NCBI GenBank assembly: GCA_965215605.1
Contig: OZ244070.1
Coordinates: 544,001-608,000 of the forward strand
Length of the DNA: 64,000 nt
From: an uncultured Candidatus Binatia bacterium
GTDB taxonomy: Bacteria; Desulfobacterota; Binatia; UBA9968; JAJDTQ01
Reading direction: 5' to 3'
The translations under genes and the position numbers were made by a program. Shown piece after piece: positions 37,586 through 63,571 of this stretch; positions within the stretch are counted from its first letter, which is position 1; every line of letters starts with the position of its first letter. The notes below the pieces were generated by a model, which saw only the letters and a program-made list of their open reading frames with translations, had not been told where the DNA came from and ran no database searches.

Positions 37586-37672
37586 CGTTTCCCTGCCAAT
37601 CTCGCGCCCCGTGAGTCAATGCCAGCGCGAACCGGCGCATTGATGAGGCCCGCAACCAAAGGAGGTCCTACC

Positions 37673-39325
37673 ATGGCCGAAGAACAGTTATATGGCGACA
37701 ACCCCATCGCCCAGCGGCAGACCGACCAGTACAAGCGCGAATACGTGCACAGCTTCGTCCGGAAGTGGGACGAGCTCATCGACTGGGACGCCAGAGCCGC
37801 CAGCGAAGGAGACTTTTTCATCAACATCCTGAAGGAACGCGGCGTGGAGCGTGTGCTGGACGTGGCCACGGGAACGGGGTTCCACTCCATCCGGCTCCTG
37901 AAGGCCGGTTTCGACGTCACCAGCGTGGACGGCAGCCCTGAAATGCTGGCTCAAGCCTTCGAGAACGCCAGGGAGCAGGGCTTCATCATGAAGACCCTTC
38001 ACGCCGACTGGCGGTGGTTGAGCCGCGACGTCCATACCCAATACGACGCGGTCATCTGCTTGGGAAACTCGCTGACCCATCTGTTCTCGGAGCAGGATCG
38101 CCGGAAGGCTCTCGCGGAGTTCTACTCGGTGCTGGAGCATGACGGCGTTCTGGTCCTGGACCAACGGAACTACGACGACATCCTCGACGATGGGTTCACC
38201 TCCAAGCACATCTACTACTACTGCGGCGACAACGTCAGCGCCGCGCCCGAGTACGTGGACGAAGGGCTGGCCCGGTTCCGGTACGAGTTTCCGGACAATT
38301 CGGTTTTCCACCTGAACATGTTTCCCCTGCGCAAGGACTACGTCCGGAAGCTCATGGGGGAAGTCGGGTTCCAGCAAGTGAAGACGTTCGCCGACTTCCA
38401 GGAGACCCACCGGGTAGAAGACCCGGATTTCTTCATCCACGTGGCGGAGAAGCTCTACAAGAACGAGGAACGGGTCGCCAGGATCACTTCAGGAGCCAGC
38501 TACTCCCAGACGGTGGAGACGGCACGGGACTACTACAACAGCAACGACGCCGACCGCTTCTATGCCACGGTGTGGGGCGGCGAAGACATTCATGTCGGCC
38601 TCTACGAAGGCGAGGGCGATACCATCTTCGACGCCAGCCGGCGGACGGTGAATCGAATGGCGTCCATGATCGACGGGCTGGAGTCGACCACCCGTGTACT
38701 GGACATCGGCTCCGGGTACGGCGGCTCGGCCCGATACCTGGTCGAGAACTACGGCTGCCACGTCGGCTGTCTGAACCTGAGCGAGGTGCAGAACGCCCGG
38801 AACCGCGACCTCAACGGCCGCAAGAAGTGCTCCCTGGCCATCAACGTGGTGGACGGAAGCTTCGAGCAAATACCCATGCCCGACGACAGCGTGGACGTGG
38901 TGTGGTCGCAGGATGCCATCCTGCACAGCGGCAACCGGCGGCAGGTGTTCGAGGAGGTCGACCGGGTCCTTGCCAAGGGCGGACAGTTCATCTTCACCGA
39001 TCCCATGCAACGCGAGGATTGCCCCGCGGATGTGCTGCAGCCCATCCTGGACCGGATTCACCTGGATTCCCTGGGGTCGGTCCCCCAATACCGGACCATG
39101 CTTTCGAGCCTGGGCTTCGAAGAACTGGAGTTTGTCGACCTCACGCCGCAGCTCGCCACCCACTACGCGCGGGTCCTCGACGAGGTACAGGCCAATCATT
39201 GGGACCTGCTGAAGGTGTGCAGCGCCGAGTACATCGAGCGGATGAAGGCCGGTCTGCAACACTGGGTGGACGGCGGCAACGGAGGCCATCTCCAATGGGG
39301 GATTCTCCATTTCCGGAAAGTGTGA
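37673..39325 (+). CDS. Fused glycine/sarcosine N-methyltransferase + sarcosine/dimethylglycine N-methyltransferase (glycine betaine synthesis)
   Basis: N-domain KWDELIDW, LDVATGTGFHS, CLGNS, DQRNYD, YYYCG (GSMT); C-domain YYNSNDADRFY..VWGGEDIHVGLY, LDIGSGYGG, WSQDAILHS, FTDPMQ, ILDRIHL (SDMT). Confidence 0.92.
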   Translation: MAEEQLYGDNPIAQRQTDQYKREYVHSFVRKWDELIDWDARAASEGDFFINILKERGVERVLDVATGTGFHSIRLLKAGFDVTSVDGSPEMLAQAFENAREQGFIMKTLHADWRWLSRDVHTQYDAVICLGNSLTHLFSEQDRRKALAEFYSVLEHDGVLVLDQRNYDDILDDGFTSKHIYYYCGDNVSAAPEYVDEGLARFRYEFPDNSVFHLNMFPLRKDYVRKLMGEVGFQQVKTFADFQETHRVEDPDFFIHVAEKLYKNEERVARITSGASYSQTVETARDYYNSNDADRFYATVWGGEDIHVGLYEGEGDTIFDASRRTVNRMASMIDGLESTTRVLDIGSGYGGSARYLVENYGCHVGCLNLSEVQNARNRDLNGRKKCSLAINVVDGSFEQIPMPDDSVDVVWSQDAILHSGNRRQVFEEVDRVLAKGGQFIFTDPMQREDCPADVLQPILDRIHLDSLGSVPQYRTMLSSLGFEELEFVDLTPQLATHYARVLDEVQANHWDLLKVCSAEYIERMKAGLQHWVDGGNGGHLQWGILHFRKV

Positions 39326-39337
39326 TGGGCGGACCCC

Positions 39338-40189
39338 ATGAAGGAGAATCCTGCGGAGGGCCGCTATGCCGCGGCCGTGGAATCGGTCAGAAGCTACTAC
39401 AACAGCGATGACGTGCGCCGGATCTACGACGCCTCGTACGGCGAAGAGCACCTGCATCTCGGCATCTACGAGAACGACGAGGACACGGTAGACGAAGCCG
39501 GCCAGCGGACCGTGGAGTGGATCGCCTCCATGATCCACGAACTGGGCCCGGGCACCCGCGTGCTGGACATCGGCGCCGGCCATGGCGGGTCCGCCCGGTT
39601 CCTGTTCCGTGAATACGGCTGCCACGTGGCATGCCTCAACCTGAGCGAGGTCCAGAACGCGCGCAACCGGGATCTCAATGCCAGAGACAAGTGCTCTCTG
39701 GCCATCAACGTGGTGGACGGAAGCTTCGAAGACATCCCGGTTACGGACGAGAGCTTCGACGTGGTGTGGTCCCAGGACGCGATCCTGCACAGCACCCGGC
39801 GACGGCAGGTATTCGCCGAAGTCGCCAGGGTGCTGTGCAAGGGCGGACAGTTCATCCTTACCGACCCCATGCAGGGCGAACTCTGCCCTCCCGAAGCCCT
39901 GCAACCCATCCTCGACCGTGTCCACCTCGATTCCCTGGGATCCCTTCGGGAGTACCGGGCGGTGACGTCAGAGCTGGGTCTTCAGGAGATGGAGTTCACC
40001 GACCTCACGCCCCACCTCGCCATCCACTACGGGCGGATCCTCGATGGATTGCTCGCCAATGAGCAGGAACTGTCGGAGCAGTGCGGCGCCCATCATGTCC
40101 AACGCGTGAAGACCGGTCTGCGGCACTGGGTGGACGGCGGAAAGCGGCGCCACCTGCAGTGGGGAATCCTGCACTTCCGGAAAGCCTGA
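39338..40189 (+). CDS. SDMT-like class I SAM methyltransferase, diverged duplicate
   Basis: Collinear with the C-domain of the upstream gene (LNLSEVQNARN, WSQDAILHS, HLQWGILHFRK), but the N-terminal motif is changed to YDASYGEEHLHLGIY. Confidence 0.88.
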   Translation: MKENPAEGRYAAAVESVRSYYNSDDVRRIYDASYGEEHLHLGIYENDEDTVDEAGQRTVEWIASMIHELGPGTRVLDIGAGHGGSARFLFREYGCHVACLNLSEVQNARNRDLNARDKCSLAINVVDGSFEDIPVTDESFDVVWSQDAILHSTRRRQVFAEVARVLCKGGQFILTDPMQGELCPPEALQPILDRVHLDSLGSLREYRAVTSELGLQEMEFTDLTPHLAIHYGRILDGLLANEQELSEQCGAHHVQRVKTGLRHWVDGGKRRHLQWGILHFRKA

Positions 40190-40224
40190 CGGCGGCCGAA
40201 AGTGCAGACACCACCCTGACTCTC

Positions 40225-41295
40225 CTACCACCCCACCGGGCTTGCCAGCCGGCCGCCGATCTCCGGCGAGTCCGCGGCGTAGCGGTAGACCCGGAACATG
40301 CTGTTGGCCGGGCCGCGGCCTTCGTAGTCGGCGAAGAACGGGCAGACGTACTCCCAGACGATCTCGCCCGCCTGGGTGACCTCGAAGGCCCGTCCCATCT
40401 GCCCCTCGCAGATCAGGGTGTTGCCGTTGTCGAAGCGCTGGGCGCCGCTGATGTTGGGGCTGAAGAAGCTCCAGATGGGCGAGCCCTTGTAGTGCCAGAC
40501 GGTGTCGCCCGACTCCGGATCGAGCTCGATGACCCGGGAATGCGGGTTGTCGATGCAATGGATGCCGTTGGCGAAGAGCAGGATGTTGCCGTTGGGCAGC
40601 ACCTGGCAGTCGTGTTGATGGCCCCACGTGACGTCCTGGTGAGCCCAGCGCGTCTCGCAGGTCTCGCGGTCGATCATCATGATGGCGTTGAGGCGCCGGA
40701 AACTGAGCATCACGCCGCCGTCGTCGAGGGGGAAGCAGGCGTTGGCGTGGGCGAATTCATCCCTGCCGCAGCAGTGGCAGATCTCCCATCGGTCCAGGTC
40801 CAGGTCGCGCCAGGCGTGCCATTCCCATACTGTCTCGCCCGCGGGAGAGATCTCCCTCACGTAGTCGCCGTAGGTGACGCCTTCGTGCTCGCTGCCGGGC
40901 TGGCCGCCCCTGATCCGAGCCTGGACATCCGCGGGCACCGGTTCCCAGCCGATGTAGATGGTGCTGCCGTCCGGGCGACGTCGGAAGTCGTGGTGCTGGC
41001 CCGGGTCACAGTACTCCCACACCACGTCCCCGTCCCAGTTGTATTCCCGCAGCAGGCCGCCCTTGCCGCGCCGGAGCGGCGGACCCTCTTCCATGCGGCC
41101 GGCCCAGAGCAGGTTGCCGTTGGGCAGGAGGTAGGCGTAGTTCCCAGGACACAGGGGGAACGACCACTCGTGGAGCACCTCGCCGCGCATCCCGATGATG
41201 TACGCCTTGGTTGACGACTGGGGCACGATCAGCGTGTAGCCCGGCGTCGCCTTCGCATTGTCGTAGACCAGCACACCCAAGTCACGGTGTCTCAT
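40225..41295 (-). CDS. Aryl-sulfate sulfotransferase (ASST)-like beta-propeller protein, no signal peptide
   Basis: GYTL, LLPNGNLL, DGDVVWEY, QHHDF, HANA, HQHD, LPNGNILLFANG, ISGAQRFDNGNTLICEG, GEIVWEY repeats. Confidence 0.8.
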   Translation of the reverse strand: MRHRDLGVLVYDNAKATPGYTLIVPQSSTKAYIIGMRGEVLHEWSFPLCPGNYAYLLPNGNLLWAGRMEEGPPLRRGKGGLLREYNWDGDVVWEYCDPGQHHDFRRRPDGSTIYIGWEPVPADVQARIRGGQPGSEHEGVTYGDYVREISPAGETVWEWHAWRDLDLDRWEICHCCGRDEFAHANACFPLDDGGVMLSFRRLNAIMMIDRETCETRWAHQDVTWGHQHDCQVLPNGNILLFANGIHCIDNPHSRVIELDPESGDTVWHYKGSPIWSFFSPNISGAQRFDNGNTLICEGQMGRAFEVTQAGEIVWEYVCPFFADYEGRGPANSMFRVYRYAADSPEIGGRLASPVGW

Positions 41296-41329
41296 TGAAC
41301 CTCCTGTCCTTTATGAACGGAATCGCGAT

Positions 41330-42769
41330 TCAGGAGACCTGCGGCGGCCTTCGAGTGTGCCATCCGGCCGCCTGCTCGTAGGCGTGCGCCACCTGCAACA
41401 ACGCCGGTTCCTCGAAATGGGGCGCCGCGAACTGCAGGCCGATGGGGAGACCTCGGGCGGAAAACCCGCCGGGCACGCTAACCGCCGGCGCGCCGGTGAC
41501 GTTGAACGGGATCGTGCAAAGGGTCCCCCGAGTGCCGCGGGCGTCGGACAACGGGATCCGCCCTCCCGCCGTTTCCACATACCCTTGCTCGCACTCTTCG
41601 ATGGTCTCGGCCGGCATGCTCACCGCCGGGCTCACGATCACGTCCACCTGCTCGAAGGCCCGGTCGAAGGACTCGCAGATGAGCCGCCGGACACGCTGTG
41701 CGGTGACGTACGCGTGGGCGGGGAGCGTCAGTGCGAGGACCTGCCGGCACATCAGCCCCGGACTGTAGTCCCGCGGGCGGGTGCGCAGAAAAGGCTCGGC
41801 CGGAGACAGGTTCTCCGCCCGAGCCGTGATGAGCTGCACCATGGGGATGTACTCGACGTACGGGATCGACAGCTCCTGTACGGTCATGCCCAGGGACTCC
41901 AACAGCTCCACGGACGCGGCCGTGGCATCCTTGACCTCGTCCACCGCCAGGTCGTCGAAGTAGTCGCGGACGATCCCGACTTTCAGACCCGCCACCCCCT
42001 CGCCGAGGCGCGCGCCGAAGTCCGGCACGGGAGCGTGGCTCGACAGCGGATCCCTGGGGTCGGCGCCGGCGATGGCTTGCAGCATCAGCGCGCTGTCCCG
42101 CACCGTGCGGGTGAGCACGCCGAAATGGTCCGTGGAATAGCCGCCGGTGCCGGCAACGCCGCCGACCCGGCTCACCCGGCCGTAGGTGGCCTTGAGCCCC
42201 ACCACGCCGCACAGGGACGCCGGGTTGCGCACGGAGCCGGCGTTGTCGGTGCCGATGGAGCCCAGGGCCAGGCCCGCGGCCACGGACGCGGCCGAGCCGC
42301 CGCTGGAACCGCCGGAGACGCGGTTCCGGTCCCAGGGATTGCGGGTGGTGCCGTAGTAGGGATTGATGGTGGTGCAGCCGGCCGCCCACTCGTGCAGGTT
42401 GGTCTTGCCCAGGACCACGGCTCCGGCCTGCCTGAGCCGGGCCACCACCGTGGCGTCCTCGTCCGGGATCCAATCGGAAAGATGTTTCGAGCCCGCCGTA
42501 GTCCGGACACCCGCGGTGGCGAGACTGTCCTTGATGGAGACGGGGATTCCGTGCAACGCGCCGCGGTAGCGGCCCGCGGCCAGGTCGGCCTCGGCTTGGG
42601 CGGCATCCGCCAGCGCCTGCTCCCGGGTCAGGGTGACGAAGGTGTTGAGCTCGGGATCCAGCCGGTCGATACGTTCGAGAAACGCACGGGTCAACTCGAC
42701 CGGCGAGAGCTGCCGCGCCTCGATGCGGCGCGCGGCGTCGGCGATGGTCAGGTCCTGAAGGTCCGTCAC
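41330..42769 (-). CDS. Amidase-signature (GatA-like) amidase
   Basis: LHGIPVSIKD (Lys), GKTNLHE, GGSSGGS, GTDNAGSVRNPAS (Ser nucleophile), GLKATYGRVS; GTG start at 42769 overlaps the upstream TGA. Confidence 0.9.
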   Translation of the reverse strand: MTDLQDLTIADAARRIEARQLSPVELTRAFLERIDRLDPELNTFVTLTREQALADAAQAEADLAAGRYRGALHGIPVSIKDSLATAGVRTTAGSKHLSDWIPDEDATVVARLRQAGAVVLGKTNLHEWAAGCTTINPYYGTTRNPWDRNRVSGGSSGGSAASVAAGLALGSIGTDNAGSVRNPASLCGVVGLKATYGRVSRVGGVAGTGGYSTDHFGVLTRTVRDSALMLQAIAGADPRDPLSSHAPVPDFGARLGEGVAGLKVGIVRDYFDDLAVDEVKDATAASVELLESLGMTVQELSIPYVEYIPMVQLITARAENLSPAEPFLRTRPRDYSPGLMCRQVLALTLPAHAYVTAQRVRRLICESFDRAFEQVDVIVSPAVSMPAETIEECEQGYVETAGGRIPLSDARGTRGTLCTIPFNVTGAPAVSVPGGFSARGLPIGLQFAAPHFEEPALLQVAHAYEQAAGWHTRRPPQVS

Positions 42770-43722
42770 AGGTAACCCTGCTCCCTGCAGAACTTCTCTG
42801 CACCGGGGTGGAGCGGCACGTCCAGGGGCGTGGCCTCCGTGTCCTTCCACAACTGGTCGATGCCGGTCAGCGTCTCCCAGTAGATCTCGTTCTGGCGCTC
42901 CTTCAGCGCCGCGCACACCTTGTAGACGTCCTCGTCGGGCAGCGAGGCGCGGGTGTAGAGGGGCCATCCGCCGTAGTCGATGCAGGTGTGGTCCGCCTTG
43001 AGATGGGGGTAGCACCCGGCCGGCATGGTCACCGTGCGCCAGCCCAGGGCGTTGAGCCGCTCCATGGCAAAATCGTCAGGGGTGACGGGCTCCATGCCGC
43101 GCGACAGGGCGTCATCGAACCACAGCACCAGGCCCTCGTCGAAGACCGCGTCGATGGTCTCCTCCCTGAGCGCGGCCATCCGCCGCTCGTCCCCGGGCCC
43201 GCCGTTGAGCTGAAGGCTGCCGCCCCAGGATTCCAGGTCCGCCAGCGTGAACCCGTAGATCTCCAGGGTCTGGTCCAGCAGCACGCGGGTGGAATGAGTG
43301 GCGTCCTCGCGGATGGACAGCCGCAACGGGTATTTCCGTTCCTTGATCTGGGACAGCGACGTCAGTCCGGTGCGCGGGTGAATCATGAACACGAAGCGGT
43401 CCCAGGACGGGTAGCAGGCCACGACCCTGAGCGGCAGCGGCTCCTTGAAGAGCCCGACGCCCCGGTAGGCCTGGGTGAGGAATGCCGACGGGTTGACCAT
43501 GGACATCTCCAGATCCCCCTTGGCCACCGCGTGGGCGATGATGGGCGAGCCCGTGGACATGCGCAGCCAGGGGCGGAAATTCTCTCCGGACCCGCTCCCC
43601 ACCGAGATGCACATGTCCCGGTTGCCGTAGTAGGGCGTGTTCGGGTCGCCGGCGACATGCAGCCCGATCTGCCATAGCATCAGGCCGCGTTGAAAGTTGG
43701 CTCCGCGCGGGAGTCGCTCCAT
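42766..43722 (-). CDS. TAXI/TRAP solute-receptor-like (PBP2 fold) protein lacking a signal peptide
   Basis: GS....AVAKGDLEM, AYRGVGLF, LRVVA, GLTSLSQIK, LYTRASLPDEDVY, PLHPGAEKFCRE resemble TAXI receptors; N-terminus is not a signal peptide. Confidence 0.65.
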   Translation of the reverse strand: MERLPRGANFQRGLMLWQIGLHVAGDPNTPYYGNRDMCISVGSGSGENFRPWLRMSTGSPIIAHAVAKGDLEMSMVNPSAFLTQAYRGVGLFKEPLPLRVVACYPSWDRFVFMIHPRTGLTSLSQIKERKYPLRLSIREDATHSTRVLLDQTLEIYGFTLADLESWGGSLQLNGGPGDERRMAALREETIDAVFDEGLVLWFDDALSRGMEPVTPDDFAMERLNALGWRTVTMPAGCYPHLKADHTCIDYGGWPLYTRASLPDEDVYKVCAALKERQNEIYWETLTGIDQLWKDTEATPLDVPLHPGAEKFCREQGYL

Positions 43723-43752
43723 GGTTGACCTCCGATCCGGTGATGTAAGCAA

Positions 43753-45897
43753 CTACTCCAGCAGCCCCGCGCCCCTGGCCCACCTGTACTTGGCGCCCAG
43801 GATCGCCACCGGCAGCTCGGTGGTGTAGGGACAGGCCACGATGCCCCGCTCGTAGAGGTACTCCGAGGCCTCCTCCACCTGCACGTCGCCCACCAGCGAC
43901 ACCACCACGGGCTTGTCGATGCCCTTGTCGCGCCCTTCCTGCACCACCCGGGCGCACAGCTCGGCGAAGACCATGGGCGGCGTGATGATGGTGTGCCAAT
44001 AGCCCAGGATCAGGGCGTGGATGCGGTCGTCCTCCAGGCCGAACCGGATGGTGCGCTCGTAAGTGGTGGGCGGCTCGCCGCCGGTGATGTCCACTGGATT
44101 GCCCGAGGCGCCGAAGGGCGGGATGAACTGCTTGAAGCCTTGGTCCAGGTCCTGGGGAAACTTCATGAGCGAGAGCCCGTTGGCCACCACCGCGTCCGAC
44201 AGGAGCACCCCCGAGCCGCCGGCGCCGGTGATGATGACGATCTCCTCGCCCTTGGGCGCCGGCAGTACGGACAGGCCCCGGGCGAACTGGAGCATGTCGT
44301 TCAGCGAGTAGGCGCGCACCACGCCGCAGGCCTTCAGAAGGTCATCATAGACCTTGTCGTCGCCGGCCAGCGCGCCGGTGTGGGAGGCCGCGGCGCGGGC
44401 GCCGAGCTGGGTGCGGCCGGCCTTGAGCATGACCACGGGCTTCTTCTTCGACACGCGGCTGGCCACCTCGTAGAAGCTGCGGCCGTCCTTGAGGTCCTCG
44501 GCGTGCATGGCCACCACCTGGGTGTTGTCGTCCTGCTCGAAGTAGGTCAGCAGGTCGTCCTCGTCGAGGTCCGACTTGTTGCCAAGGCCGACGATGGCCG
44601 AGACCCCCATGCGGGTGGAGCGGCTGAAGCCGATGATGGACATGCCCACGCCGCCGCTCTGGGACGACAGCGCCACCGGCCCCTTGACGTCGTAGGGGGT
44701 GCAGAACGTGGCGCAGAGGTTGGCCGGCGTGTAGTAGAAGCCGTAAATGTTGGGTCCCATGACGCGCACATTGTGCTTGCGCGCCTCCGCCAGAAGCTCC
44801 TCCTGCATCTCCTTCTCGCCCACCTCGGCAAAGCCCGACGGGATCATCACGGCGCCCGGTATGCCCTTCTCCCCCACCTCGGTCATGGCCGCGGCGCAGA
44901 ACTTCGCCGGCACCGCGAAGATGGCCACGTCCACGTCCTCCGGGATGTCCTTGACGCTCTTGTAGCACCTCTTCCCCAGGATCTCGTCCGCCCTGGGGTT
45001 GATGGGGTAGAGGGCGCCGGCGTAGCCGCCGTTGATGATGTTCTTCATCACCGAGTTGCCGATCTTCCCTTCCCCGTCGGAGGCGCCGATGACAGCCACC
45101 GCCTTCGGGTTCATGATGCGCCGCATGGCCGAGACGATCTCGTCCCGGGACGGCCGGTAGGGCTCGGGCGGCGGCGCGAAGTCCACGGTCATCACGCTGT
45201 CCACCGCGGTGGCGCCGTCGGCCCCCGCCAGCACCGGGTTCAGGTCCACCTCCCGGATCTCGGGGAATTCACTCACCAGCTCCGATACGCCGACGATGAT
45301 GTCGGCCAGGGCCTCCCGGTGCACGGCGGCGGCGCCCCGGACTCCCTTGAGAACTTCCGCCGCGGCCACGCCGTCCAGCATGGACAGGGCGTCGTCACGG
45401 CTTGCCGGCGCCAGCCGGAAGGTGACGTCGCGCAGCACCTCCACCAGCACCCCGCCCAGTCCGAAGGCCACCACCTTGCCGAAGCTCGGATCGGTCACCG
45501 CGCCGACGATGACTTCCACGCCCTTGCCGGATACCTGTTGCTGGACCTGGACACCGTCCAGCACGGCGTCGGCCTTGTAGATCCGGGCGTTCTTGATAAG
45601 AGTCCGGTAGGCCTGCTCCGCCTGCTCCCGACCCGACACCCCCACCAGCACGCCGCCGGCCTCGGTCTTGTGCAGGATGTCCTTCGAGACGATCTTCATC
45701 ACCACCGGAAAGCCGATGTCCTCGGCCAGTTCCGAGGCATCCGCCGCCGATTGAGCCACCCCTTCCCGCGGCAGCGGAACGCCGTAGGCCCGCAGCAACG
45801 CGCTGCATTCCGACGGCGACAACGCGGTGCGTCCCTCGGACCTGACTTCATTCAAGAGCGCGAGGACTTGCTCCCGCCGATCCGTTCCCGCTTGCAT
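43753..45897 (-). CDS. ADP-forming acyl-CoA ligase (acetate--CoA ligase family), beta-alpha domain order
   Basis: N-terminal ATP-grasp (VMKIVS.DILHKTEAGGV, DLNPV), then CoA-binding (VAVIGAS, YPINP, GPN), SQSGG, GNKSDL, phospho-His ASHTGALAG, NPVDITG. Confidence 0.9.
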   Translation of the reverse strand: MQAGTDRREQVLALLNEVRSEGRTALSPSECSALLRAYGVPLPREGVAQSAADASELAEDIGFPVVMKIVSKDILHKTEAGGVLVGVSGREQAEQAYRTLIKNARIYKADAVLDGVQVQQQVSGKGVEVIVGAVTDPSFGKVVAFGLGGVLVEVLRDVTFRLAPASRDDALSMLDGVAAAEVLKGVRGAAAVHREALADIIVGVSELVSEFPEIREVDLNPVLAGADGATAVDSVMTVDFAPPPEPYRPSRDEIVSAMRRIMNPKAVAVIGASDGEGKIGNSVMKNIINGGYAGALYPINPRADEILGKRCYKSVKDIPEDVDVAIFAVPAKFCAAAMTEVGEKGIPGAVMIPSGFAEVGEKEMQEELLAEARKHNVRVMGPNIYGFYYTPANLCATFCTPYDVKGPVALSSQSGGVGMSIIGFSRSTRMGVSAIVGLGNKSDLDEDDLLTYFEQDDNTQVVAMHAEDLKDGRSFYEVASRVSKKKPVVMLKAGRTQLGARAAASHTGALAGDDKVYDDLLKACGVVRAYSLNDMLQFARGLSVLPAPKGEEIVIITGAGGSGVLLSDAVVANGLSLMKFPQDLDQGFKQFIPPFGASGNPVDITGGEPPTTYERTIRFGLEDDRIHALILGYWHTIITPPMVFAELCARVVQEGRDKGIDKPVVVSLVGDVQVEEASEYLYERGIVACPYTTELPVAILGAKYRWARGAGLLE

Positions 45898-45977
45898 CTT
45901 GTACGGCCTCCGTTCCTGGAGAATGAACCCGACGGCTTCCCCTGACGCGCGACGGGAGCATCTCAATTCGGAAGAAT

Positions 45978-47216
45978 CTATCGAGTGAACGCGCCGGCGC
46001 TTCTCAGCGCGGCGATCTCCTCCGCGCCGTATCCCAGGACCTCGCTCAGCACCTCGTCGGTGTGCTCGCCCAGAAGCGGCGAGCGCTCGACCTCCACCGG
46101 CGAGTCCGAGAGCTTGATGGGGCAACCCACGTTGTACCAGGCGCCCCGCTCGGGGTGGTCGACCTCGACCATCATTTCCCGGAGTTGGACATGCTCGTCA
46201 TGCGCCAGATCCTTGGTGCTCATGATGGGGCCACAGGGAACGTCGAGATCGTTCAGGATCTCCATCAGCTCCCATTTGGTGTAGTCCCGGGCGAATTCGG
46301 CCAGCAGGCGCCACATCTCCCCCTGGTTGGCGCGCCGGACGTCGATGTCCGTGAATCGCGGGTCCTCGGCCAGCGCCTCGCCGCCGATACGAGTAGCCAA
46401 GGCCGTCCACACGTGCTCCTGCACCACCACGTAGAGGTAGTCGTTGGCGCCGCCGGGTTTGCACGGGACGGCGTTGCCCAGTTGGCCGCCGCCGGAGTCG
46501 TTGCCCGCCCGGGGGGTGAAGTCCTCGAACTCCTGCACCGAATACTCGGCCAGGGGCCCGTGCTCGATGCGCTGATGGTCCCGGAACTTCACCCGGCACA
46601 GGTTCATGACGCAGTCCATCATGGCGCACTCCACGTACTGGCCGCGCCCGGTGCGCTCCCGCTGGAGCAGCGCCGCCAGGATACCGGCCAGCAGGTGCAC
46701 GCCGGTGCCCGAGTCGCCGATCTGCGCTCCGGTGACCACCGGCGGGCCGTCGAACATGCCGCTGGTGCTCATGGCCCCGCCCATGGCCTGGGCCACGTTC
46801 TCGTAGGCCTTGAAGGCGGCGTACGGCCCTTCACTGCCGAAGCCCTTGATGGAGCCCATGATCAGCCGGGGATTCAGCTCGTGCACCTTCTCCCAGCCGA
46901 AACCGAGACGGTCCAGCACGCCGGGGCCGAAGTTTTCCAGCAGGACGTCGCACTCCTTCACCAGCCGGGTGAACACCTCCTTGCCCCGGTCGTTCTTCAG
47001 GTTCACCGTGATGGAGCGCTTGTTGCAGTTCAGCATGGTGAAGTAGAGGCTATCCGCGTCGGGGATGTCCCGGAGCTGCTTGCGCGTGGCGTCGCCCGCG
47101 GGGGACTCGAGCTTGATGACGTCGGCGCCGAGGAAGGCCATGAGCTGGCTCGAAGTGGGGCCGGCCTGGACATGGGTCATGTCCAGGATGCGAATGCCTG
47201 AGAGTGCCTTGTCCAT
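45978..47216 (-). CDS. frc: Formyl-CoA transferase (CaiB/BaiF class III)
   Basis: LDMTHVQAGP, DSLYFTMLNCNKRS, IKGFG, KAYENVAQ, catalytic IGDSGTG, NLCRVKFRD, RAGNDSGGGQ glycine loop. Confidence 0.9.
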   Translation of the reverse strand: MDKALSGIRILDMTHVQAGPTSSQLMAFLGADVIKLESPAGDATRKQLRDIPDADSLYFTMLNCNKRSITVNLKNDRGKEVFTRLVKECDVLLENFGPGVLDRLGFGWEKVHELNPRLIMGSIKGFGSEGPYAAFKAYENVAQAMGGAMSTSGMFDGPPVVTGAQIGDSGTGVHLLAGILAALLQRERTGRGQYVECAMMDCVMNLCRVKFRDHQRIEHGPLAEYSVQEFEDFTPRAGNDSGGGQLGNAVPCKPGGANDYLYVVVQEHVWTALATRIGGEALAEDPRFTDIDVRRANQGEMWRLLAEFARDYTKWELMEILNDLDVPCGPIMSTKDLAHDEHVQLREMMVEVDHPERGAWYNVGCPIKLSDSPVEVERSPLLGEHTDEVLSEVLGYGAEEIAALRSAGAFTR

Positions 47217-47251
47217 GGGATTCCCTGGTTGCTTGTATCTTGTATCCCTGG

Positions 47252-49003
47252 CTACTTGTACATGGTCTGACGTTTGGTGCCGGGAGCCCATTCACCGGCG
47301 TTGACCCAGATGTTGACGACGGCCGACTTGCCGGAGGTCCGCACCGATTCCCGCGCCCGGCGCAGCGCCGGCGCGACCTCGCGGCAGTCGGTGACCTCCT
47401 CGCCGTATCCGCCCAGCATCTCCGCGAACTTCGAGAAGGGCACGTCACCGAGAAGGTTGCCGACGTTGCCGCGCTCGTCCCCGTACTTGGAGAGCTGGCC
47501 GTAGCGTATCTGGTTCATGGCGGAGTTGTTGCCGATGACCGCGATATAGGGAGCACCGAACCGGTTGGCGGTCTCCATGTCGAACGCGGTCATGCCAAAG
47601 GAGCCGTCGCCGTAGTAACACAGGACTTCCTTCTCCGGGTGCACCAGCTTGGAAGCCAAAGCAAAACCCGTGCCCACCCCCAGCGCGCCAAGGGCGCCGG
47701 GGTCCATCCAGTTGCCGGGCGCCCGGGGCTCCACCGCCTGGGCGCTGATGGTCACGACGTCGCCGCCGTCGCCGATGTAGATGGTGTCCTCGGTGAGGAA
47801 CTCGTTGAGCTCCCAGGCCACCCGCCAGGGGTGGATGGGATTGGCGTCGGACGTGAACAGCGGCATGAGCTTGGCCGCCCGCTCATCCTCGATGCCGCGG
47901 AGATGCTCAAGCCAACGGGCGCGGCCCTCGGCGCCGTTGTCCGGCCGTTCCTCCACCGCCGCGTGCACCGCCTTGAGGATCGCTCCCGGATCGCCCACCA
48001 TGCCCAGGCCGACGTCGCGGTTCTTGGCCACGGTCCGGTAGTCCATGTCGATGTGGACCACGGTGGCGTCGGCCCGCAGCCGCCGGCCGTAGCCCATGCG
48101 GAAATCGAAGGGCGTGCCGGCGATGACGATGACGTCGGCTTCGCCGAAGGCGTCGCCGCGGGTGCGGTTGAAGTAGTGTGGGTCGCCGGGGGGCAGCAGA
48201 CCCCGGGCGGCCCCGTTCATGTAACAGGGCACGTTGAGGGCCTTGAACAGCGAGGTGGCGGCCTCGTGGCCGCGGCAGGTCCACACCTGCGTGCCCAGCA
48301 GCACCGCCGGGCGCTCGGACCGCGCCAGCAGCTCCGCCAGCTTCTCGATGTCCGCGGGATCGCCGATGGTTTTCGTGGACGCCCGTGAGCGTCCGGCCTC
48401 CGGCACGATGGCCCTGTCCGCCGGCACCTCCCGGTCGAGCACGTCCCGAGGAATCTCCAGGTAGCTCGGTCCCGGCGCCCCGGCAAAGCACTCCCGCGCC
48501 GCCATGGCCACCATGTCGGCGATGCGTTCGGTGGAACGAACGCTGGCCGAGAACTTGGTGATGGGGGCGGCCACGTCGACATGGGGCAGGTCCTGCAGCG
48601 AGCCCATCTTGTGCTGGGTGAGGGCGCCCTGCCCGCCGATATGCAGCACCGGGCTCTCCGACCGGAACGCGGTGGCGATGCCCGTCAGCGCGTTGGTGAA
48701 GCCCGGGCCGGCGGTGGTCACCACGCAGCCCAGCCGCCCGGTCTGCCGCGCATAGCCGTCCGCCGCATGCGCCGCCACCTGTTCGTGGCGCACGTCCACC
48801 ACGCGGATGCCGTGGTCGATGCAGCCGTCGTAGATGTCGATGATATGCCCGCCGCAGAGAGTGAAGATGGTATCCACCCCCTCGTTCTTGAGCGCCGCCG
48901 CCACCAGATGACCGCCCGAGACCACGTTCTCGTCGCGGCTCTTGCGGGCCAGGGTGTCGTCGGCCGTGTTGGAAGTTCGAGTGTCGGTTGAAACCCTTGC
49001 CAT
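47252..49003 (-). CDS. ThDP-dependent enzyme, probable non-canonical oxalyl-CoA decarboxylase (HACL/ALS-like)
   Basis: TLCGGHI, VRHEQVAAHAADGYAR, TAGPG, GSLQD, DGGD, ThDP motif GDGSFG...GNN; directly upstream of frc. Confidence 0.8.
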   Translation of the reverse strand: MARVSTDTRTSNTADDTLARKSRDENVVSGGHLVAAALKNEGVDTIFTLCGGHIIDIYDGCIDHGIRVVDVRHEQVAAHAADGYARQTGRLGCVVTTAGPGFTNALTGIATAFRSESPVLHIGGQGALTQHKMGSLQDLPHVDVAAPITKFSASVRSTERIADMVAMAARECFAGAPGPSYLEIPRDVLDREVPADRAIVPEAGRSRASTKTIGDPADIEKLAELLARSERPAVLLGTQVWTCRGHEAATSLFKALNVPCYMNGAARGLLPPGDPHYFNRTRGDAFGEADVIVIAGTPFDFRMGYGRRLRADATVVHIDMDYRTVAKNRDVGLGMVGDPGAILKAVHAAVEERPDNGAEGRARWLEHLRGIEDERAAKLMPLFTSDANPIHPWRVAWELNEFLTEDTIYIGDGGDVVTISAQAVEPRAPGNWMDPGALGALGVGTGFALASKLVHPEKEVLCYYGDGSFGMTAFDMETANRFGAPYIAVIGNNSAMNQIRYGQLSKYGDERGNVGNLLGDVPFSKFAEMLGGYGEEVTDCREVAPALRRARESVRTSGKSAVVNIWVNAGEWAPGTKRQTMYK

Positions 49004-49056
49004 GTATGTGTTTCCTTCGCAGGGGCGTGTGCTGGCCAGCGGCCGGTAAGTGAAGT

Positions 49057-49085
49057 AGTTAATCCCTGTCCGCCACGTCTGTCAA
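49057..49085 (-). promoter_or_regulatory. Sigma70 promoter of the ThDP-frc operon
   Basis: Minus strand TTGACA(49085-49080)-N17-TTAACT(49062-49057), ~55 nt upstream of the ATG at 49003. Confidence 0.7.
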
Positions 49086-49107
49086 TCAGGCTTGTCCGGA
49101 GGTTCCC

Positions 49108-49902
49108 GTGACCTTGACCATCACTCAGGTCGACGCTTTCACCAGCGAACCCTTCGGCGGCAACCCGGCCGCCGTGTGCCTGTTGCCCGCTCCGGCCGAT
49201 GCCGGGTGGATGCAGAGGGTGGCGCGGGAGATGAACCTGTCGGAGACCGCCTTCCTGGTCCGCCGGGCAGACGGCGGGTTCGACCTGCGCTGGTTCACAC
49301 CCGCGGTGGAGGTCGACCTTTGCGGCCATGCCACGCTGGCGAGCGCTCATGTGCTTTGGGAGGAAAAGCACTTGCCGCCGGATGCAACCGCCGTCTTCCA
49401 CACCCGCTCCGGCCGGTTGTCGGCGGAACTACGCGACGGATGGATCGAGATGGACTTCCCGGCGGAGCCGGACGAGCCCGCGCCCGCTCCCTACGCGCTG
49501 GCCGCCGGCTTGGGCGCCGAGCTGGCCTACATCGGCCGAAACCGCTTCGACTACCTCGTGGAGGTCGACACGCAGGCCACGGTGGAGGGGCTCACCCCGG
49601 ACTTCAGCCGTCTCGCGGAGATCGACACGCGCGGGATCATCGTCACGGCGCGAGCGGACGCCGGCGGCATCGACTTCGTGTCGCGCTTCTTCGCCCCGAG
49701 AACCGGCATCGACGAGGATCCCGTCACCGGGTCGGCACACTGCTGCCTCGGGCCCTACTGGCAATCCCGCCTCGGCCGCGACGCGTTCACCGCACGGCAG
49801 GTGTCGGAACGCGGCGGACTCGTCAAGGTCGTTGTCCGCGGCCAACGCGTCACGCTGTCGGGTCAGGCGGTAACCGTCCTGCGCGGCACACTGCTGACGT
49901 AA
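49108..49902 (+). CDS. PhzF family isomerase/epimerase
   Basis: QVDAFT..PFGGNPAAV, EMNLSETAF, RWFTP..EVDLCGHATLA, SRFFAP..GIDEDPVTGSAHC. Confidence 0.93.
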   Translation: MTLTITQVDAFTSEPFGGNPAAVCLLPAPADAGWMQRVAREMNLSETAFLVRRADGGFDLRWFTPAVEVDLCGHATLASAHVLWEEKHLPPDATAVFHTRSGRLSAELRDGWIEMDFPAEPDEPAPAPYALAAGLGAELAYIGRNRFDYLVEVDTQATVEGLTPDFSRLAEIDTRGIIVTARADAGGIDFVSRFFAPRTGIDEDPVTGSAHCCLGPYWQSRLGRDAFTARQVSERGGLVKVVVRGQRVTLSGQAVTVLRGTLLT

Positions 49903-50035: not shown

Positions 50036-51478
50036 TCAGGCGAGGCTTCCGATGGCCGCCTGGATGACGCCCAGCAGCGGCGCGGGGTAGACCCCGAACC
50101 AGATCAGCAGCACCGTCAGCCCGGCGAGCACGAGGCCCTCGGGCAGGGAGAAGCGGCGGGTGGCGGGCAGGGGGGAGGACGGGTCTTCCAGCGGCGTCAG
50201 GTAGAGGGTGATGATGATGCGCAGGTAGTAGTAGAGGCCGATAACGCTGCTGACCACCAGCAGGATCACCAGTGTCCATTGATCGGACAGCACTCCGGCG
50301 GCGAGGACGTAGAATTTGCCCACGAACCCGGCGGTGAGCGGGATCCCGGCCAGGGAGAACAGCATCAGCGAGAGCGCGCCGCTGACCCAGGGGCGGCGCC
50401 AGAAGAGCCCGCGGTAATCGCTGACCTCGTCGGCTTCCTTGCGCTCGTCGGAGAGCGCGGTGATGATGCCGAAAATTCCCAGCGAGGTGATGAAATAGGC
50501 CACCAGGTAGAACGTCACCGCATGGGACCCTTCCCGTGACGCGGCGATCACCGCCACCAGCAGGTAACCGAGGTGGGCGATGGAGGAGTAGGCCAGCAGG
50601 CGCTTGATGTTCTCCTGCAACAGCGCCAGGAGGTTGCCGAGGAACATGGAGGCCACGGCGATGATGGCCAGCACCGCCACCACCGAGTCATAGTCCAGCA
50701 GCCCGCCGTACTGGCCGTAACGGAGCAGCAACGCCACCATGGCGCCCTTGGAGACCGTGGTCAGATAGGCCGTCACCGGGGTGGGGGCGCCCTGGTACAC
50801 GTCCGGCGCCCACATGTGGAAGGGTACCACCGCAAGCTTGAAGCCGGCGCCGATGACAACCATGGCGAAGCCCCCGAGCAGCAGCAAGGAGGGCTCCCGG
50901 GCCTTGCCGGCGAGAACGGCGGTCATGGCCGTGAAGTCCATGGTGCCCAGGTCCGCGTAGATGAGCGCCATGCCGAACAGCAGGAAGGCCGCGGACACCG
51001 CCGCCAGGATCAGGTACTTGACGCCGGATTCGAGAGCCGTCCGGGTGGTGCGGAGATAGGCCACCAAGCCGTACAGGGAGACGCTCAGGATCTCCAGCCC
51101 CAGGAAAAACGAAATGAAGTGATTGCTCGCGGTCAACACGGCGCAGCCGAAGGTGGCCAGCGTGAGCAGCAGGTAGAATTCCTCCCGATTCCCGGGAGCG
51201 CGGTCCAGGTAGCTGTACGACAGCACCACCACCACCATGGTGGCCGCCGTGAGCAGGCCCATATAGAACAGCGCATACGCGTCGATGACCAGCAGCGGAG
51301 CCGCCGGCGGCGCCGAGGGCCCGACCGCGGCGGGCAACACCGCCAGCGCCAGCGCCATCCCCGCCAGGGCCAGCACCGCCGTGAGCGCGTGGTTGCGGCG
51401 GAACGAGATCACCAGCATCAGCACCAGCGGCGTCAGGCCCAGGAGAACGATGGGGGTCAGTGCACCGAACAGGTTCAC
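50036..51478 (-). CDS. nuoN: NADH-quinone oxidoreductase subunit N
   Basis: ESGVKYLIL, FKLAVVPFHMWAPDVYQGAP, NIKRLLAYSSIAH, SLAGIPLTAGFVGKF. Confidence 0.95.
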   Translation of the reverse strand: MNLFGALTPIVLLGLTPLVLMLVISFRRNHALTAVLALAGMALALAVLPAAVGPSAPPAAPLLVIDAYALFYMGLLTAATMVVVVLSYSYLDRAPGNREEFYLLLTLATFGCAVLTASNHFISFFLGLEILSVSLYGLVAYLRTTRTALESGVKYLILAAVSAAFLLFGMALIYADLGTMDFTAMTAVLAGKAREPSLLLLGGFAMVVIGAGFKLAVVPFHMWAPDVYQGAPTPVTAYLTTVSKGAMVALLLRYGQYGGLLDYDSVVAVLAIIAVASMFLGNLLALLQENIKRLLAYSSIAHLGYLLVAVIAASREGSHAVTFYLVAYFITSLGIFGIITALSDERKEADEVSDYRGLFWRRPWVSGALSLMLFSLAGIPLTAGFVGKFYVLAAGVLSDQWTLVILLVVSSVIGLYYYLRIIITLYLTPLEDPSSPLPATRRFSLPEGLVLAGLTVLLIWFGVYPAPLLGVIQAAIGSLA

Positions 51479-53043
51479 GGCCGCTTACCTCCATCCGGCG
51501 CGGTGGATGCCACGGCATCCGCCTTGGGGGCTTCCGCGGCCGCGGAGCGCGCCGCCGGGGTCCGGGCCTTGTCGACGAACTCCCGCATCTGGGCCAGCGC
51601 GTTGCCCGACGTGGTCAACACCGGCTGCGGGTAGAGGCCCAGCCCAAGCGTCGCGCCTATGAGGGAGGCCATGACCACCGTCTCCCGGCCGCTGGTGTCA
51701 TCGAGCTTCCAGTCGCCCGTGCTGGCGCCGTAGTAGACCTTCTGCATCATCCACAGGGAATAGACCGTAGCGGCCACGAGGCCCACCGACGCCAGCACCG
51801 TGAGCGGGACGTTGACCTGAAACGCGCCCATGAGCACCAGGAACTCGCCTATGAAGCTGGCCAGACCGGGCAACCCCAGGGAGGCCATGGTGAAGAACAG
51901 GCCCACGCCGCCCATCCGGGGCATCATCGCCCACAAGCCGCCGAAGCTGCCCAGATCGCGGGTATGGGTACGGTGCTGGAGGTCTCCGACCATCATGAAC
52001 AACGCCGCCGCGCTGAAGCCGTGGGACAGCATGATGATGACCGCGCCCTGGAGCGCAAGCTCGTTCCACGCGAAGATCCCCAGCAGGACGAAGCCCATGT
52101 GGCTGATGCTGGTGTACGCCACCATGCGCTTCAGGTCGGTCTGCCCCAGGGCCAGCAGCGCGCCGTAGAGAATGCCCACCACCGCCAGGATCATGGCGAT
52201 GAGGGTGAAGTCGGCGGCGGCCTGGGGAAAGATCGGCACCACGAACCGGAGCATGCCGTAGGCGCCGATCTTCAGCACGAGGCCCGCCAGCGCCACACTG
52301 CCCGCGGTGGGCGCCTGGGTGTGGGCGTCCGGCAACCACGTGTGAAGCGGCACCACCGGCAGCTTGACGGCAAAGGCGACGAAGAAGCCCAGCATGAGCC
52401 ACCACGCGGTGCTCTCCGACAACGGAGTCCCCAGGAGATCCAGGTAGTCGAAGGTCATGACCCCGGTGCTCTGCCAGTGCGCCACCACCAGTCCCAGGAT
52501 GGCCAGCAGCATCAGGAGGCCGCTCCCCTGGGTGATGATGAAGAACTTGGTGGTGGCATAGACCCGGTTCTCGTAGCCCCAGATACCGATGAGGAAGTAC
52601 AGCGGCAGCAGGGAAATTTCCCAGAAGGCGAAGAAGAGGAACATGTCGAAGGCGATGAACACGCCCGACAGAGCGGTCAGAATCAGCAGCAGGTTGAAAT
52701 GAAAGAACCCCACCGACCGCGTCACCGACTTCCAGGACGTCAGCACCGCCAACACCGTCAGGAAGCTGGCCAGCAACAGCAAGAGCAGGCTGAGGCCGTC
52801 CACCGCCAGGTGAAAGCTGATCCCCAGTTGGGGGATCCAGGGCTGCTTGTAGACCATCAGCCACGTACCCTGCCCGGTCTCCACGCGGGCGAAGAAGACG
52901 CCCCAGGTGACCAGCAGCAGCAGCAGGTGCAGCAGCGCCGTCCCAAGCGAGATCCAGCGCGGCCACAGATCGCTCCAGCGTCCGGCAATCCACGCCGCCA
53001 GTCCGCCCGCCAGAGGCAGCAGCAGAATCCAGGCAAGGCTCAT
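51475..53043 (-). CDS. nuoM: NADH-quinone oxidoreductase subunit M
   Basis: WIPQLGISFHLAVDGLS, FAVKLPVVPLHTWLPDAH, DLKRMVAYTSISHMG, ASLGLPG..FIGE; start 53043 overlaps the nuoL stop. Confidence 0.95.
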   Translation of the reverse strand: MSLAWILLLPLAGGLAAWIAGRWSDLWPRWISLGTALLHLLLLLVTWGVFFARVETGQGTWLMVYKQPWIPQLGISFHLAVDGLSLLLLLLASFLTVLAVLTSWKSVTRSVGFFHFNLLLILTALSGVFIAFDMFLFFAFWEISLLPLYFLIGIWGYENRVYATTKFFIITQGSGLLMLLAILGLVVAHWQSTGVMTFDYLDLLGTPLSESTAWWLMLGFFVAFAVKLPVVPLHTWLPDAHTQAPTAGSVALAGLVLKIGAYGMLRFVVPIFPQAAADFTLIAMILAVVGILYGALLALGQTDLKRMVAYTSISHMGFVLLGIFAWNELALQGAVIIMLSHGFSAAALFMMVGDLQHRTHTRDLGSFGGLWAMMPRMGGVGLFFTMASLGLPGLASFIGEFLVLMGAFQVNVPLTVLASVGLVAATVYSLWMMQKVYYGASTGDWKLDDTSGRETVVMASLIGATLGLGLYPQPVLTTSGNALAQMREFVDKARTPAARSAAAEAPKADAVASTAPDGGKRP

Positions 53044-54947: not shown

Positions 54948-54948
54948 G

Positions 54949-55257
54949 TCATCCTCTCATCTGGCTGACGGCATCCACGTCCAGGGTGTTGAACCGGTGG
55001 TAGATCTGCACCACCAGCGCCAATCCCACCGCCACCTCGGCCGCGGCCATGGCCAGGATGAAGAAGAACATGACCTGGCCGTCCGGCTGCCCCCAATGGG
55101 CGCCCGCCACCACAAAGGCCAGGGCCGCGGCGTTGAGCATGATCTCCAGGGACAGCAGCACGAAGATGATGTTGCGGCGCACCAGCACACCCGTCAGGCC
55201 CAGCCCGAACAGCACCGCCGCCAGCACGAGGCCGTGCTCCATGGGAACCGCGGCCAT
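54949..55257 (-). CDS. nuoK: NADH-quinone oxidoreductase subunit K
   Basis: [31 protein letters not shown]. Confidence 0.95.
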
Positions 55258-56284: not shown

Positions 56285-56294
56285 CGGCGACTCC

Positions 56295-57251: not shown

Positions 57252-57252
57252 G

Positions 57253-59952: not shown

Positions 59953-59957
59953 GGTCG

Positions 59958-61244: not shown

Positions 61245-61253
61245 AGCTCCGCC

Positions 61254-61733: not shown

Positions 61734-61758
61734 GGAAACCTCGCCGTCACGACCCCCG

Positions 61759-63507: not shown

Positions 63508-63571
63508 CAGTCGCACCCGCTACCCTTTTCCCGTCGAATGCGGCTCGTGTGGTCCATGGTTGAGAACAGAA

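Follow-up and report, generated by a model that had tools for sequence, protein, structure and literature searches.

An oxalate-type formyl-CoA module with an atypical thiamine-dependent partner and lineage-specific downstream genes in a Binatia genome

We analyzed a 64,000-nucleotide (nt) stretch of the genome of an uncultured Candidatus Binatia bacterium (OZ244070.1), hereafter the window, which is part of contig C1 in a 4.06-Mb assembly. Between positions 40225 and 49003 it holds an array of six open reading frames (ORFs), all on the minus strand and with high third-position GC: a thiamine diphosphate (ThDP)- and coenzyme A (CoA)-dependent enzyme of the family that comprises oxalyl-CoA decarboxylase (OXC) and 2-hydroxyacyl-CoA lyase (HACL), the formyl-CoA transferase Frc, a fused ADP-forming acyl-CoA ligase, a TAXI-like protein without a signal peptide, an amidase, and an ASST-like protein (Table 1). 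The ORFs and their starts agree with the six co-oriented genes and the gaps of 35, 80, 30, −4, and 34 nt listed in the initial annotation, and Pfam backs its family labels for all six. We read the locus as a composite, in which a formyl-CoA module is followed by separately added units, and not as one conserved pathway (probability about 0.55).

Table 1. Features of the six-gene array and related loci, with coordinates in the window unless a locus or contig is named (aa, amino acids).
Feature	Position	Strand	Size or remark
ThDP- and CoA-dependent enzyme, OXC/HACL family	47252-49003	-	583 aa
Frc, formyl-CoA transferase	45978-47216	-	412 aa
Fused ADP-forming (NDP-forming) acyl-CoA ligase	43753-45897	-	714 aa
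Signal-less TAXI-fold protein	42766-43722	-	318 aa
Amidase-signature hydrolase	41330-42769	-	479 aa; GTG start
ASST-like beta-propeller protein without signal peptide	40225-41295	-	356 aa
Conserved promoter-like or operator-like element, TTGACA-N17-TTAACT	49057-49085	-	53 nt before the ThDP start codon
Stable hairpin between the convergent ASST-like and methyltransferase genes	40160-40220	.	folding energy compared with shuffles
Insert loci between frc and the ligase gene	L033:12805-14681; L036:12995-17341; L037:12749-14600; L038		
TAXI-like paralogues (L242-L245)	G000:C1 1530814-1531581, 1591846-1592613, 2662470-2663234, 3275652-3276494		

Among the proximal genes, Frc is the most firmly assigned. 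It passes two equivalog models (TIGR03253, 583.1 bits against a cut-off of 504.2; PRK05398, 598.4 against 442), the class III CoA-transferase domain PF02515 spans it at full length (residues 5–386 of 412), and it matches Escherichia coli YfdW at 419 bits, with GDSGTG, the putative motif of the catalytic Asp, and GGGQ of the glycine loop aligned to GDSNTG and GGGQ. From the equivalog score, its predicted role is that of a formyl-CoA:oxalate CoA-transferase. The ligase contains the domains ATP-grasp_5, CoA_binding, Succ_CoA_lig, and Ligase_CoA_2, all within residues 18–713, and falls under all substrate-defined NCBIfam cut-offs; in a set covering acetate, 3-hydroxypropionate, and 4-hydroxybutyrate, its best score is to 4-hydroxybutyrate-CoA ligase (511 of 1300 bits), the others being 488 of 1200 and 432 of 1300 bits. 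Our literature searches returned nothing useful on a bacterial ADP-forming oxalyl-CoA synthetase, and no paper combining formyl-CoA transferase, OXC, and an ADP-forming ligase.

A metagenome scan with the ThDP enzyme alignment returned 80 loci at 71–95% identity. Neighbor genes were counted on 79 distinct loci, using our own gene caller based on GC at third codon positions, BLAST clusters, and a Pfam and NCBIfam scan of one representative per cluster. The ThDP enzyme and Frc are a tight core and the ligase is a frequent third gene: Frc comes after the ThDP gene in 56 of 59 testable loci, and 22 of the 35 loci testable for the third position have the ligase there. The position after the ligase, testable in 19 loci, holds a TAXI gene in two, both of which are one genus-type sequence. 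The trio of ThDP enzyme, Frc, and ligase stands alone in four other Binatia genomes (68–69%, 56–58%, and 72–73% identity), and the nearest outgroup contigs, whose ThDP enzymes are 80–84% identical, carry the trio only.

The neighbors of this core are of oxalate type. A transporter of the MFS family that passes the equivalog for the oxalate/formate antiporter OxlT (565 vs 335 bits) is present in 34 of the 79 loci, and lies directly upstream and co-oriented in 24 of 60 testable ones. TctABC genes occur in 12–14 of the 79, OxlT or Tct importers in 50, and a GntR-FCD regulator in 40–41. A PanE/ApbA reductase is found in 11–12 of the 79, and PMC8411744 characterizes PanE2 as a putative oxalyl-CoA reductase. 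Rarer neighbors are a porin (12 of 79), AceK (nine), SucCD- or malate-thiokinase-like genes (six to seven), and a CitE/HpcH-type lyase (three). Malate thiokinase and malyl-CoA lyase take part in oxalate assimilation in Methylobacterium. Directly after Frc, 18–19 of the 79 loci encode an Fmt-like formyltransferase of about 305 aa (Formyl_trans_N plus Formyl_trans_C; e.g., L224:10202-11116, L165, L167, L180), which scores under the fmt cut-off (163 of 201.5 bits) and may hand the formyl group of formyl-CoA on to an acceptor. In two Binatia genomes the trio adjoins a three-subunit 2-oxoacid:ferredoxin oxidoreductase or a bicupin; oxalate oxidoreductase is known from Moorella, and OxdC is a bicupin. 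The Frc score, the wide distribution of the unit, and the oxalate-type genes beside it in relatives, among them the OxlT equivalog, support the reading of the proximal genes as an oxalate-type formyl-CoA module.

One of these two genomes (L060:13621-17800, genome G031) has a GntR-FCD regulator and the three-subunit oxidoreductase, made up of Fer4, POR_N, and TPP_enzyme_C proteins, directly upstream of the trio and co-oriented with it; this enzyme may resemble oxalate oxidoreductase.

The distal genes were compared inside and outside the genus. Within it, in a sample of 27 species with 22 genus-type loci from public genomes, each of the six genes is found in 26 of 27 species, the misses being cut or incomplete assemblies and one true loss of the ligase, and the TAXI-like, amidase, and ASST-like genes are consecutive in 22 of 22 loci. 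Because these genomes are 80–99% identical over the whole region, flanking genes included, this synteny counts as one observation and not as 22. Gaps range from 11 to 60 nt between the ThDP gene and Frc, from 30 to 903 nt between the ligase and the TAXI-like gene, and from 34 to 473 nt between the amidase and ASST-like genes; the TAXI-like and amidase genes overlap (−4 nt) in 17 of 22 loci, where they appear to be translationally coupled. Between Frc and the ligase the gap is 45–175 nt in 13 loci, and seven of 20 have 2.0–4.6 kb of inserted genes: an AAA_21/OLD-like ATPase plus an ORF of 209 aa; a set of four glycosyl- or capsule-synthesis genes, glycosyltransferases among them, with one gene in the opposite orientation; and three ORFs, all small and without a Pfam match. 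A co-oriented 283-aa ORF occupies the gap between ligase and TAXI-like gene in one species (L073:9143-9994). With its signal-peptide-like start and GQSGG motif, it looks like a secreted serine hydrolase. The single six-gene unit of the initial annotation finds no support in this comparison, as both the Frc/ligase and the ligase/TAXI junctions carry insertions within the genus.

Outside the genus, orthologues of the TAXI-like protein (59–74% identity) were recovered in 58 loci from Binatia and Burkholderiales. The ligase is upstream in none of 45 testable loci, the amidase is downstream in none of 50, and no Frc orthologue was found anywhere in the 58. Relatives of the TAXI-like, amidase, and ASST-like proteins stand in varied contexts, and elsewhere the distal three therefore group neither with one another nor with frc. 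The initial annotation had proposed that these genes could supply the route with a precursor in the form of an amide or a sulfated conjugate. By the refuting condition that it named, linkage to frc in relatives, the proposal fails outside one genus of near-identical genomes, none of the 58 loci elsewhere holding a Frc orthologue. A search of gene neighborhoods, which it had suggested as a check of that linkage, finds that the trio ends without the distal genes in other genomes and that ASST orthologues, at 65% identity, are located elsewhere with other neighbors. Since the distal genes join the core in one genus only, a six-gene pathway has no comparative support.

We propose that the locus consists of three units. 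The first would be an old and widespread formyl-CoA module of ThDP enzyme, Frc, and often an ADP-forming ligase, most likely running an oxalyl-CoA cycle: the ligase would prime the cycle by turning oxalate, CoA, and ATP into oxalyl-CoA, the ThDP enzyme would remove CO2 to give formyl-CoA, and Frc would move CoA from formyl-CoA onto the next oxalate, freeing formate. The acyl group is the least certain step, because the ThDP clade departs from textbook OXC at the active site. The neighbor context favors oxalate and the ThDP active site argues caution, and we give slightly better than even odds to oxalyl-CoA as the substrate of the core. The second unit would be the TAXI-fold protein, located in the cytoplasm, together with the amidase-signature hydrolase to which it is translationally coupled, and the third the ASST-like propeller. 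Both would have been set downstream of the first unit in one Binatia genus only, and their likeliest role would be a separate catabolism of small amides. The gaps of 30 and 34 nt would allow read-through from the upstream promoter-like element, co-expression then being a local arrangement.

Several results weigh against this reading, and most concern the ThDP enzyme. Pfam finds all three TPP_enzyme domains in it, and no NCBIfam equivalog is passed: PRK05858 gives 444.7 of 587 bits, the actinobacterial HACL model NF058623 gives 351 of 600, and the OXC models PRK09259 and TIGR03254 are missed at 233.8 of 557 and 217.6 of 739.4 bits. In a search of the whole genome with the OXC model, no protein rises above the cut-off (best 217 of 739 bits), and an E. 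coli control passes. The best match in the PDB is an actinobacterial 2-hydroxyisobutyryl-CoA lyase (7pt3, 267 bits), whereas the OXC structures of E. coli, Methylorubrum, and Oxalobacter score 187, 195, and 150 bits. Residues were mapped by sequence alignment with E. coli Oxc, without structures, and the transfer from E. coli motifs to residue numbers is our own reading. On this mapping, the Tyr-Glu of the OXC 'DYEE' motif corresponds to Leu136-Gln137, the Tyr of the 'NNGGIY' stretch to Asn497, and the Ser of the lid motif 'GTESG' to Arg578, which is Ala in other Binatia orthologues. According to PMC8411744 and PMC8760513, Tyr134, Glu135, Tyr497, and Ser568 are the active-site or catalytic residues of MeOXC, and Y483 and S553 their counterparts in OfOXC; an engineered MeOXC with three of these positions and A415C changed kept less than 0.2% of its OXC efficiency, according to the former (PMC8411744). 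As described in PMC8760513, AcHACL has Leu127 and Gln128 in the active site and a catalytic Glu493 on a short helix. The Leu-Gln pair is conserved in the ThDP enzyme as Leu136-Gln137, Glu493 aligns with Ile499 and Ile492 with Gln498 (the PDB chain numbering is offset by 11), and no acidic residue occurs in 494–500.

Judged on these alignments, the ThDP enzyme belongs to an unassigned clade within the OXC/HACL family and cannot be filed as a textbook OXC. The route proposed in the initial annotation, a ThDP oxalyl-CoA decarboxylase acting with Frc, is supported for Frc, which passes its equivalog, and for the oxalate-type context, and falls short for the ThDP enzyme, which is not recognizable as OXC. 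We also considered a canonical OXC located elsewhere in Binatia: the ThDP paralogues of other Binatia, 33–36% identical, likewise miss the OXC cut-offs and do not lie beside frc.

The remaining counterpoints concern transport and the separateness of the units. The annotated absence of an OxlT antiporter from the window holds, and extends to the whole genome, where no OxlT-type gene is above the cut-off (best 154.9 of 335 bits). Every locus of the genus shows the adjacency, and the genes of this genome lie close together. The RNA data are assembled contigs of two RNA libraries from relatives of about 90% identity; such contigs may derive from DNA and reveal neither strand nor the ends of transcripts. 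They fall on each of the six genes, in 29 and 26 of 30 bins, and one of 1008 nt, from a relative about 93% identical, bridges the ligase–TAXI junction, a weak hint of read-through from ligase to TAXI-like gene in that relative.

The TAXI-like protein matches Pfam NMT1_3 (58.9 bits vs a cut-off of 27) and stays under the cut-off of the TAXI subfamily model TIGR02122 (51.5 of 84.35 bits). An AlphaFold2 model from a 51-sequence alignment, with a predicted local distance difference test score (pLDDT) of 92.3, replaced an earlier 15-sequence model (pLDDT 62, residues 1–98 unresolved). Its seven best Foldseek matches are all TAXI-type binding proteins (E 3e-15 to 6e-13, TM 0.54–0.62, identity 19–22%), and we are confident in the predicted two-lobe TAXI fold. 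The model adds an N-terminal helix at residues 8–25, and the first 35 residues, including a Glu in mid-helix, are nearly invariant across the 59–74%-identical orthologues. This N-terminus is only weakly hydrophobic: simple measures of hydropathy and conservation reveal no stretch resembling a signal peptide (maximum 0.68 over 15 residues). Lengths are 318–322 aa in most of the 120 closest relatives. At E ≤ 0.001, 1002 representatives clustered at 50% match the protein. In the window the TAXI-like gene has no TRAP membrane gene beside it, and the common neighbor clusters that were scanned contain none either.

Four TAXI-like paralogues in the same genome, 32–36% identical, likewise have no hydrophobic N-termini. 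Their neighbors are an M20 peptidase with a Mo-hydroxylase, a ThDP enzyme, an ABC importer operon, and a pair of Amidohydro_2 and MFS genes. Orthologues elsewhere adjoin another ThDP enzyme in 18 of 58 loci; other neighbors are MFS, GST, M20, glyoxalase, pyridoxal-phosphate enzymes, an isochorismatase-like hydrolase, XdhC/MobA-like genes, and Mo-hydroxylase subunits. The recurrence of C-N hydrolases near TAXI-like genes, counted with no background comparison, is suggestive. Titles and abstract openings in the literature turned up nothing on signal-less TAXI proteins. Co-folding of the TAXI-like protein with the amidase scored 0.00, which gives no answer and speaks neither for nor against binding.

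The amidase has PF01425 at residues 25–458 (406.6 bits) and passes no NCBIfam equivalog, reaching 364 of 481 bits for GatA (TIGR00132) and 323 of 461 for AtzE. GatA is the closest relative, with 332 bits to 4wj3. Lys80, Ser155, and Ser179 are unchanged in 16 sequences, and by analogy with GatA they are the putative catalytic triad. Each genome has four to six amidase paralogues, 55–62% identical, and no orthologue is closer than these; the paralogues and the relatives of the ASST-like protein lie in varied, hydrolase-rich neighborhoods. One amidase paralogue is divergent from an NMT1-like gene, and no TAXI–amidase adjacency was found among paralogues in the same genome. At another locus of this genome (L241, G000:C1 778495-782458), two amidase-signature and two Amidohydro_2 genes, all co-oriented, alternate, part of the paralogue expansion in the genus. 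The ASST-like protein matches PF14269 (48.1 vs 27 bits) and PF05935 (36.7 vs 24.2 bits), has no match among NCBIfam models, and by hydropathy has no hydrophobic N-terminus. Its best sequence match in the PDB is weak (sulfotransferase 9kf4, E 5e-4), and its Atlas neighbors are clusters of an aryl sulfotransferase family of about 355 aa.

Upstream of the ThDP gene, TTGACA-N17-TTAACT has one exact match in the whole window, for a pattern set after the fact. Its second half agrees with TATAAT at three of six positions, with no A at position 2, and a scan for sigma-70 consensus promoters omits the element for this reason. All 13 upstream regions aligned from the genus keep the block TTGACAG...GATTAACTA unchanged, while its flanks diverge; an invariant block amid drifting surroundings argues that this is a real cis element, apparently either a promoter or an operator. 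Of the 'near-consensus promoter' first described here, the element itself is therefore present and invariant, and 'near-consensus' is overstated. A terminator scan detected no intrinsic terminator-like site between the six genes. GGAGG lies 6 nt 5′ of the TAXI-like ATG, and the GTG start of the amidase sits within GTGA, overlapping the TAXI-like stop codon by 4 nt. Most relatives carry an inverted repeat, TTTGCCGG...CCGGCAAA (TGCCGG...CCGGCA), between the promoter-like element and the ThDP start (e.g., L065:4640-4722), with eight predicted pairs, one compensatory change, and −6 kcal/mol, which is weak covariation support. The repeat is shortened in the window (49004-49056), where the leader folds no better than shuffled sequences.

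The active-site comparison raises the unlikely alternative that the ThDP enzyme is a HACL or another formyl-CoA-forming lyase, and that the trio degrades a short 2-hydroxy acid: the ligase would activate the acid, the lyase would split it into an aldehyde or ketone and formyl-CoA, and Frc would recycle the CoA, with a 2-hydroxyacyl-CoA as an equally unlikely substrate of the core. Its best solved relative is, after all, a 2-hydroxyisobutyryl-CoA lyase, well ahead of the three OXCs (267 vs 150–195 bits), it shares the Leu-Gln pair of AcHACL (PMC8760513), all the OXC landmarks (Tyr-Glu, Tyr, and Ser) are missing from it, and in a known case the lyase gene directly adjoins the gene of an acid-CoA ligase, as PMC7176365 describes. 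The same alignment, however, puts Ile499 in place of the catalytic Glu493 with no acidic residue nearby in 494–500, and the score of 351 of 600 bits is under the HACL equivalog cut-off. The surroundings also point away from a lyase: relatives have oxalate-type neighbors, namely a PanE-type reductase and the OxlT equivalog, and Frc passes the equivalog of the oxalate pathway.

More doubtful still is a pathway of all six genes within the genus, in which the TAXI-fold protein would bind and the amidase would hydrolyze an oxalyl amide such as oxamate, the oxalate would enter the cycle of ligase, Frc, and ThDP enzyme, and the ASST-like protein may handle a conjugate. The array would then be an importer-less module of the oxalate type wired to an internal supply of oxalate, or a close analogue, that the TAXI-fold protein and the amidase would draw from a small amide, with a ThDP catalyst lacking the canonical Tyr-Glu, Tyr, and Ser; this, too, we consider quite improbable. 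The distal adjacency in all 22 genus loci, the 30- and 34-nt gaps, the GTGA overlap and the absence of detected terminator-like sites between genes, the single conserved promoter-like element upstream, and the relative's RNA-library contig across the ligase–TAXI junction are all consistent with it, and an internal source of the acid would fit a genome with no OxlT above the cut-off, when 50 of 79 related loci have OxlT or Tct. Yet that adjacency amounts to one observation at 80–99% identity, no linkage exists outside the genus, and the Frc/ligase and ligase/TAXI junctions tolerate inserted genes, one on the opposite strand. The amidase is moreover one of four to six paralogues per genome, with unrelated neighbors, and literature linking oxamate, amidase, and oxalyl-CoA was not found. 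Least credible is a role in import, in which the TAXI-like protein would act outside the cytoplasm as a conventional solute-binding protein and bring in oxalate or a precursor for the module. The fold, predicted with high confidence, and the TAXI or TRAP binding-protein labels that sources give to its relatives would suit that role, which is hard to square with a protein that has no signal-peptide-like stretch (0.68 at best), a nearly invariant start with Glu in mid-helix, a uniform length across most of 120 relatives, a score under the TAXI subfamily cut-off, and no TRAP membrane gene beside it in the window or among the scanned common neighbors.

Turning to the flanks, the hairpin that follows the last gene has a minimum free energy of −34.4 kcal/mol, against a shuffle mean of −26.8 (z = −2.18; three of 200 shuffles as stable). 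It is left out by the terminator scan because it has no T-tract, and it is likely a two-way transcript end for the ASST-like and methyltransferase genes. An Rfam scan of 39800–49500 gave zero matches at E ≤ 1. Convergent with the ASST-like gene are a gene for a 568-aa protein with two methyltransferase domains (37619-39325, +) and, after it, one for a 283-aa methyltransferase (39338-40189, +); the pair adjoins the array in most genus loci. Its layout may resemble that of the fused glycine/sarcosine and sarcosine/dimethylglycine N-methyltransferases of betaine synthesis. On the other side, a PhzF-family gene (49108-49902, +; 215 bits) points away from the array across a shared intergenic region; it is kept at this spot in the genus and absent beside the trio elsewhere. 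A nuo (complex I) operon (50036-63519, −), with a fused 30-kDa and 49-kDa protein of the NuoCD type and a long NuoG-like ORF, reaches the PhzF gene.

The locus thus combines a known core of the oxalate type, in which the ThDP partner is atypical, with passenger genes specific to the lineage, and the tidy six-gene 'operon' of one genome is a lineage-specific juxtaposition. The ThDP clade, 71–95% identical across 80 contigs, is a regular partner of Frc and OxlT-type antiporters, yet it misses the OXC models and differs at exactly the sites on which the choice of carboligation over decarboxylation depends in engineered OXC, the ones altered deliberately to obtain a formyl-CoA carboligase. Should the clade prove to be an efficient OXC, the catalytic residues now accepted would be dispensable; otherwise, some of the metagenomic 'oxalate' clusters would have another substrate. 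Both outcomes are relevant to builders of formyl-CoA-based one-carbon pathways. The signal-less TAXI-fold family of about 320 aa, with five copies in this genome and many relatives beside amide hydrolases, ThDP enzymes, and molybdenum hydroxylases, is annotated everywhere as transporter subunits and probably does something else.

Among known systems, the lyase-HCL cluster of Actinomycetospora chiangmaiensis provides the closest solved relative of the ThDP enzyme, with the Leu-Gln pair in common; in both loci the genes for a lyase-type enzyme and an acid-CoA ligase lie in one cluster (PMC7176365, PMC8760513), and the product is formyl-CoA, as predicted for the Binatia locus. Unlike that cluster, the Binatia locus does not keep Glu493 and has Frc; its ligase is ADP-forming, whereas PMC7176365 describes HCL as a 465-aa ligase of another kind, and the neighbors of its relatives are of oxalate type and not alcohol or aldehyde dehydrogenases. 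The TAXI-like protein shares its predicted fold and the NMT1_3 match with the solute-binding proteins of TAXI-TRAP transporters (PDB 1us4, 8u79, 9ibo). It differs from them in having no signal peptide or nearby membrane partner and in its extra conserved N-terminal helix, its identity to solved TAXIs is 19–22% and its score under the TIGR02122 cut-off, and its four genome paralogues are also signal-less. The amidase, for its part, is like GatA and AtzE in scoring best to GatA and in having an overlapping or small-gap partner gene. GatA works with the subunits of GatCAB, and AtzE with AtzG; unlike these systems, the amidase has no GatB, GatC, or AtzG homologue adjacent, and its coupled partner is a TAXI-fold protein.

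The frc-oxc systems, yfdXWUVE of E. coli and OxlT/Oxc/Frc of Oxalobacter, are the models for the core as a whole. The order here is ThDP enzyme and then Frc, an ADP-forming ligase stands in place of a second CoA-transferase such as YfdE, this genome has no antiporter gene above the cut-off, and, unlike Oxc, the ThDP partner misses the OXC models and does not have the OXC Tyr-Glu, Tyr, and Ser. In common with these systems, an OXC/HACL-family ThDP gene lies beside a bona fide Frc, as oxc adjoins frc in E. coli, and relatives of the locus add an OxlT-equivalog antiporter directly upstream.

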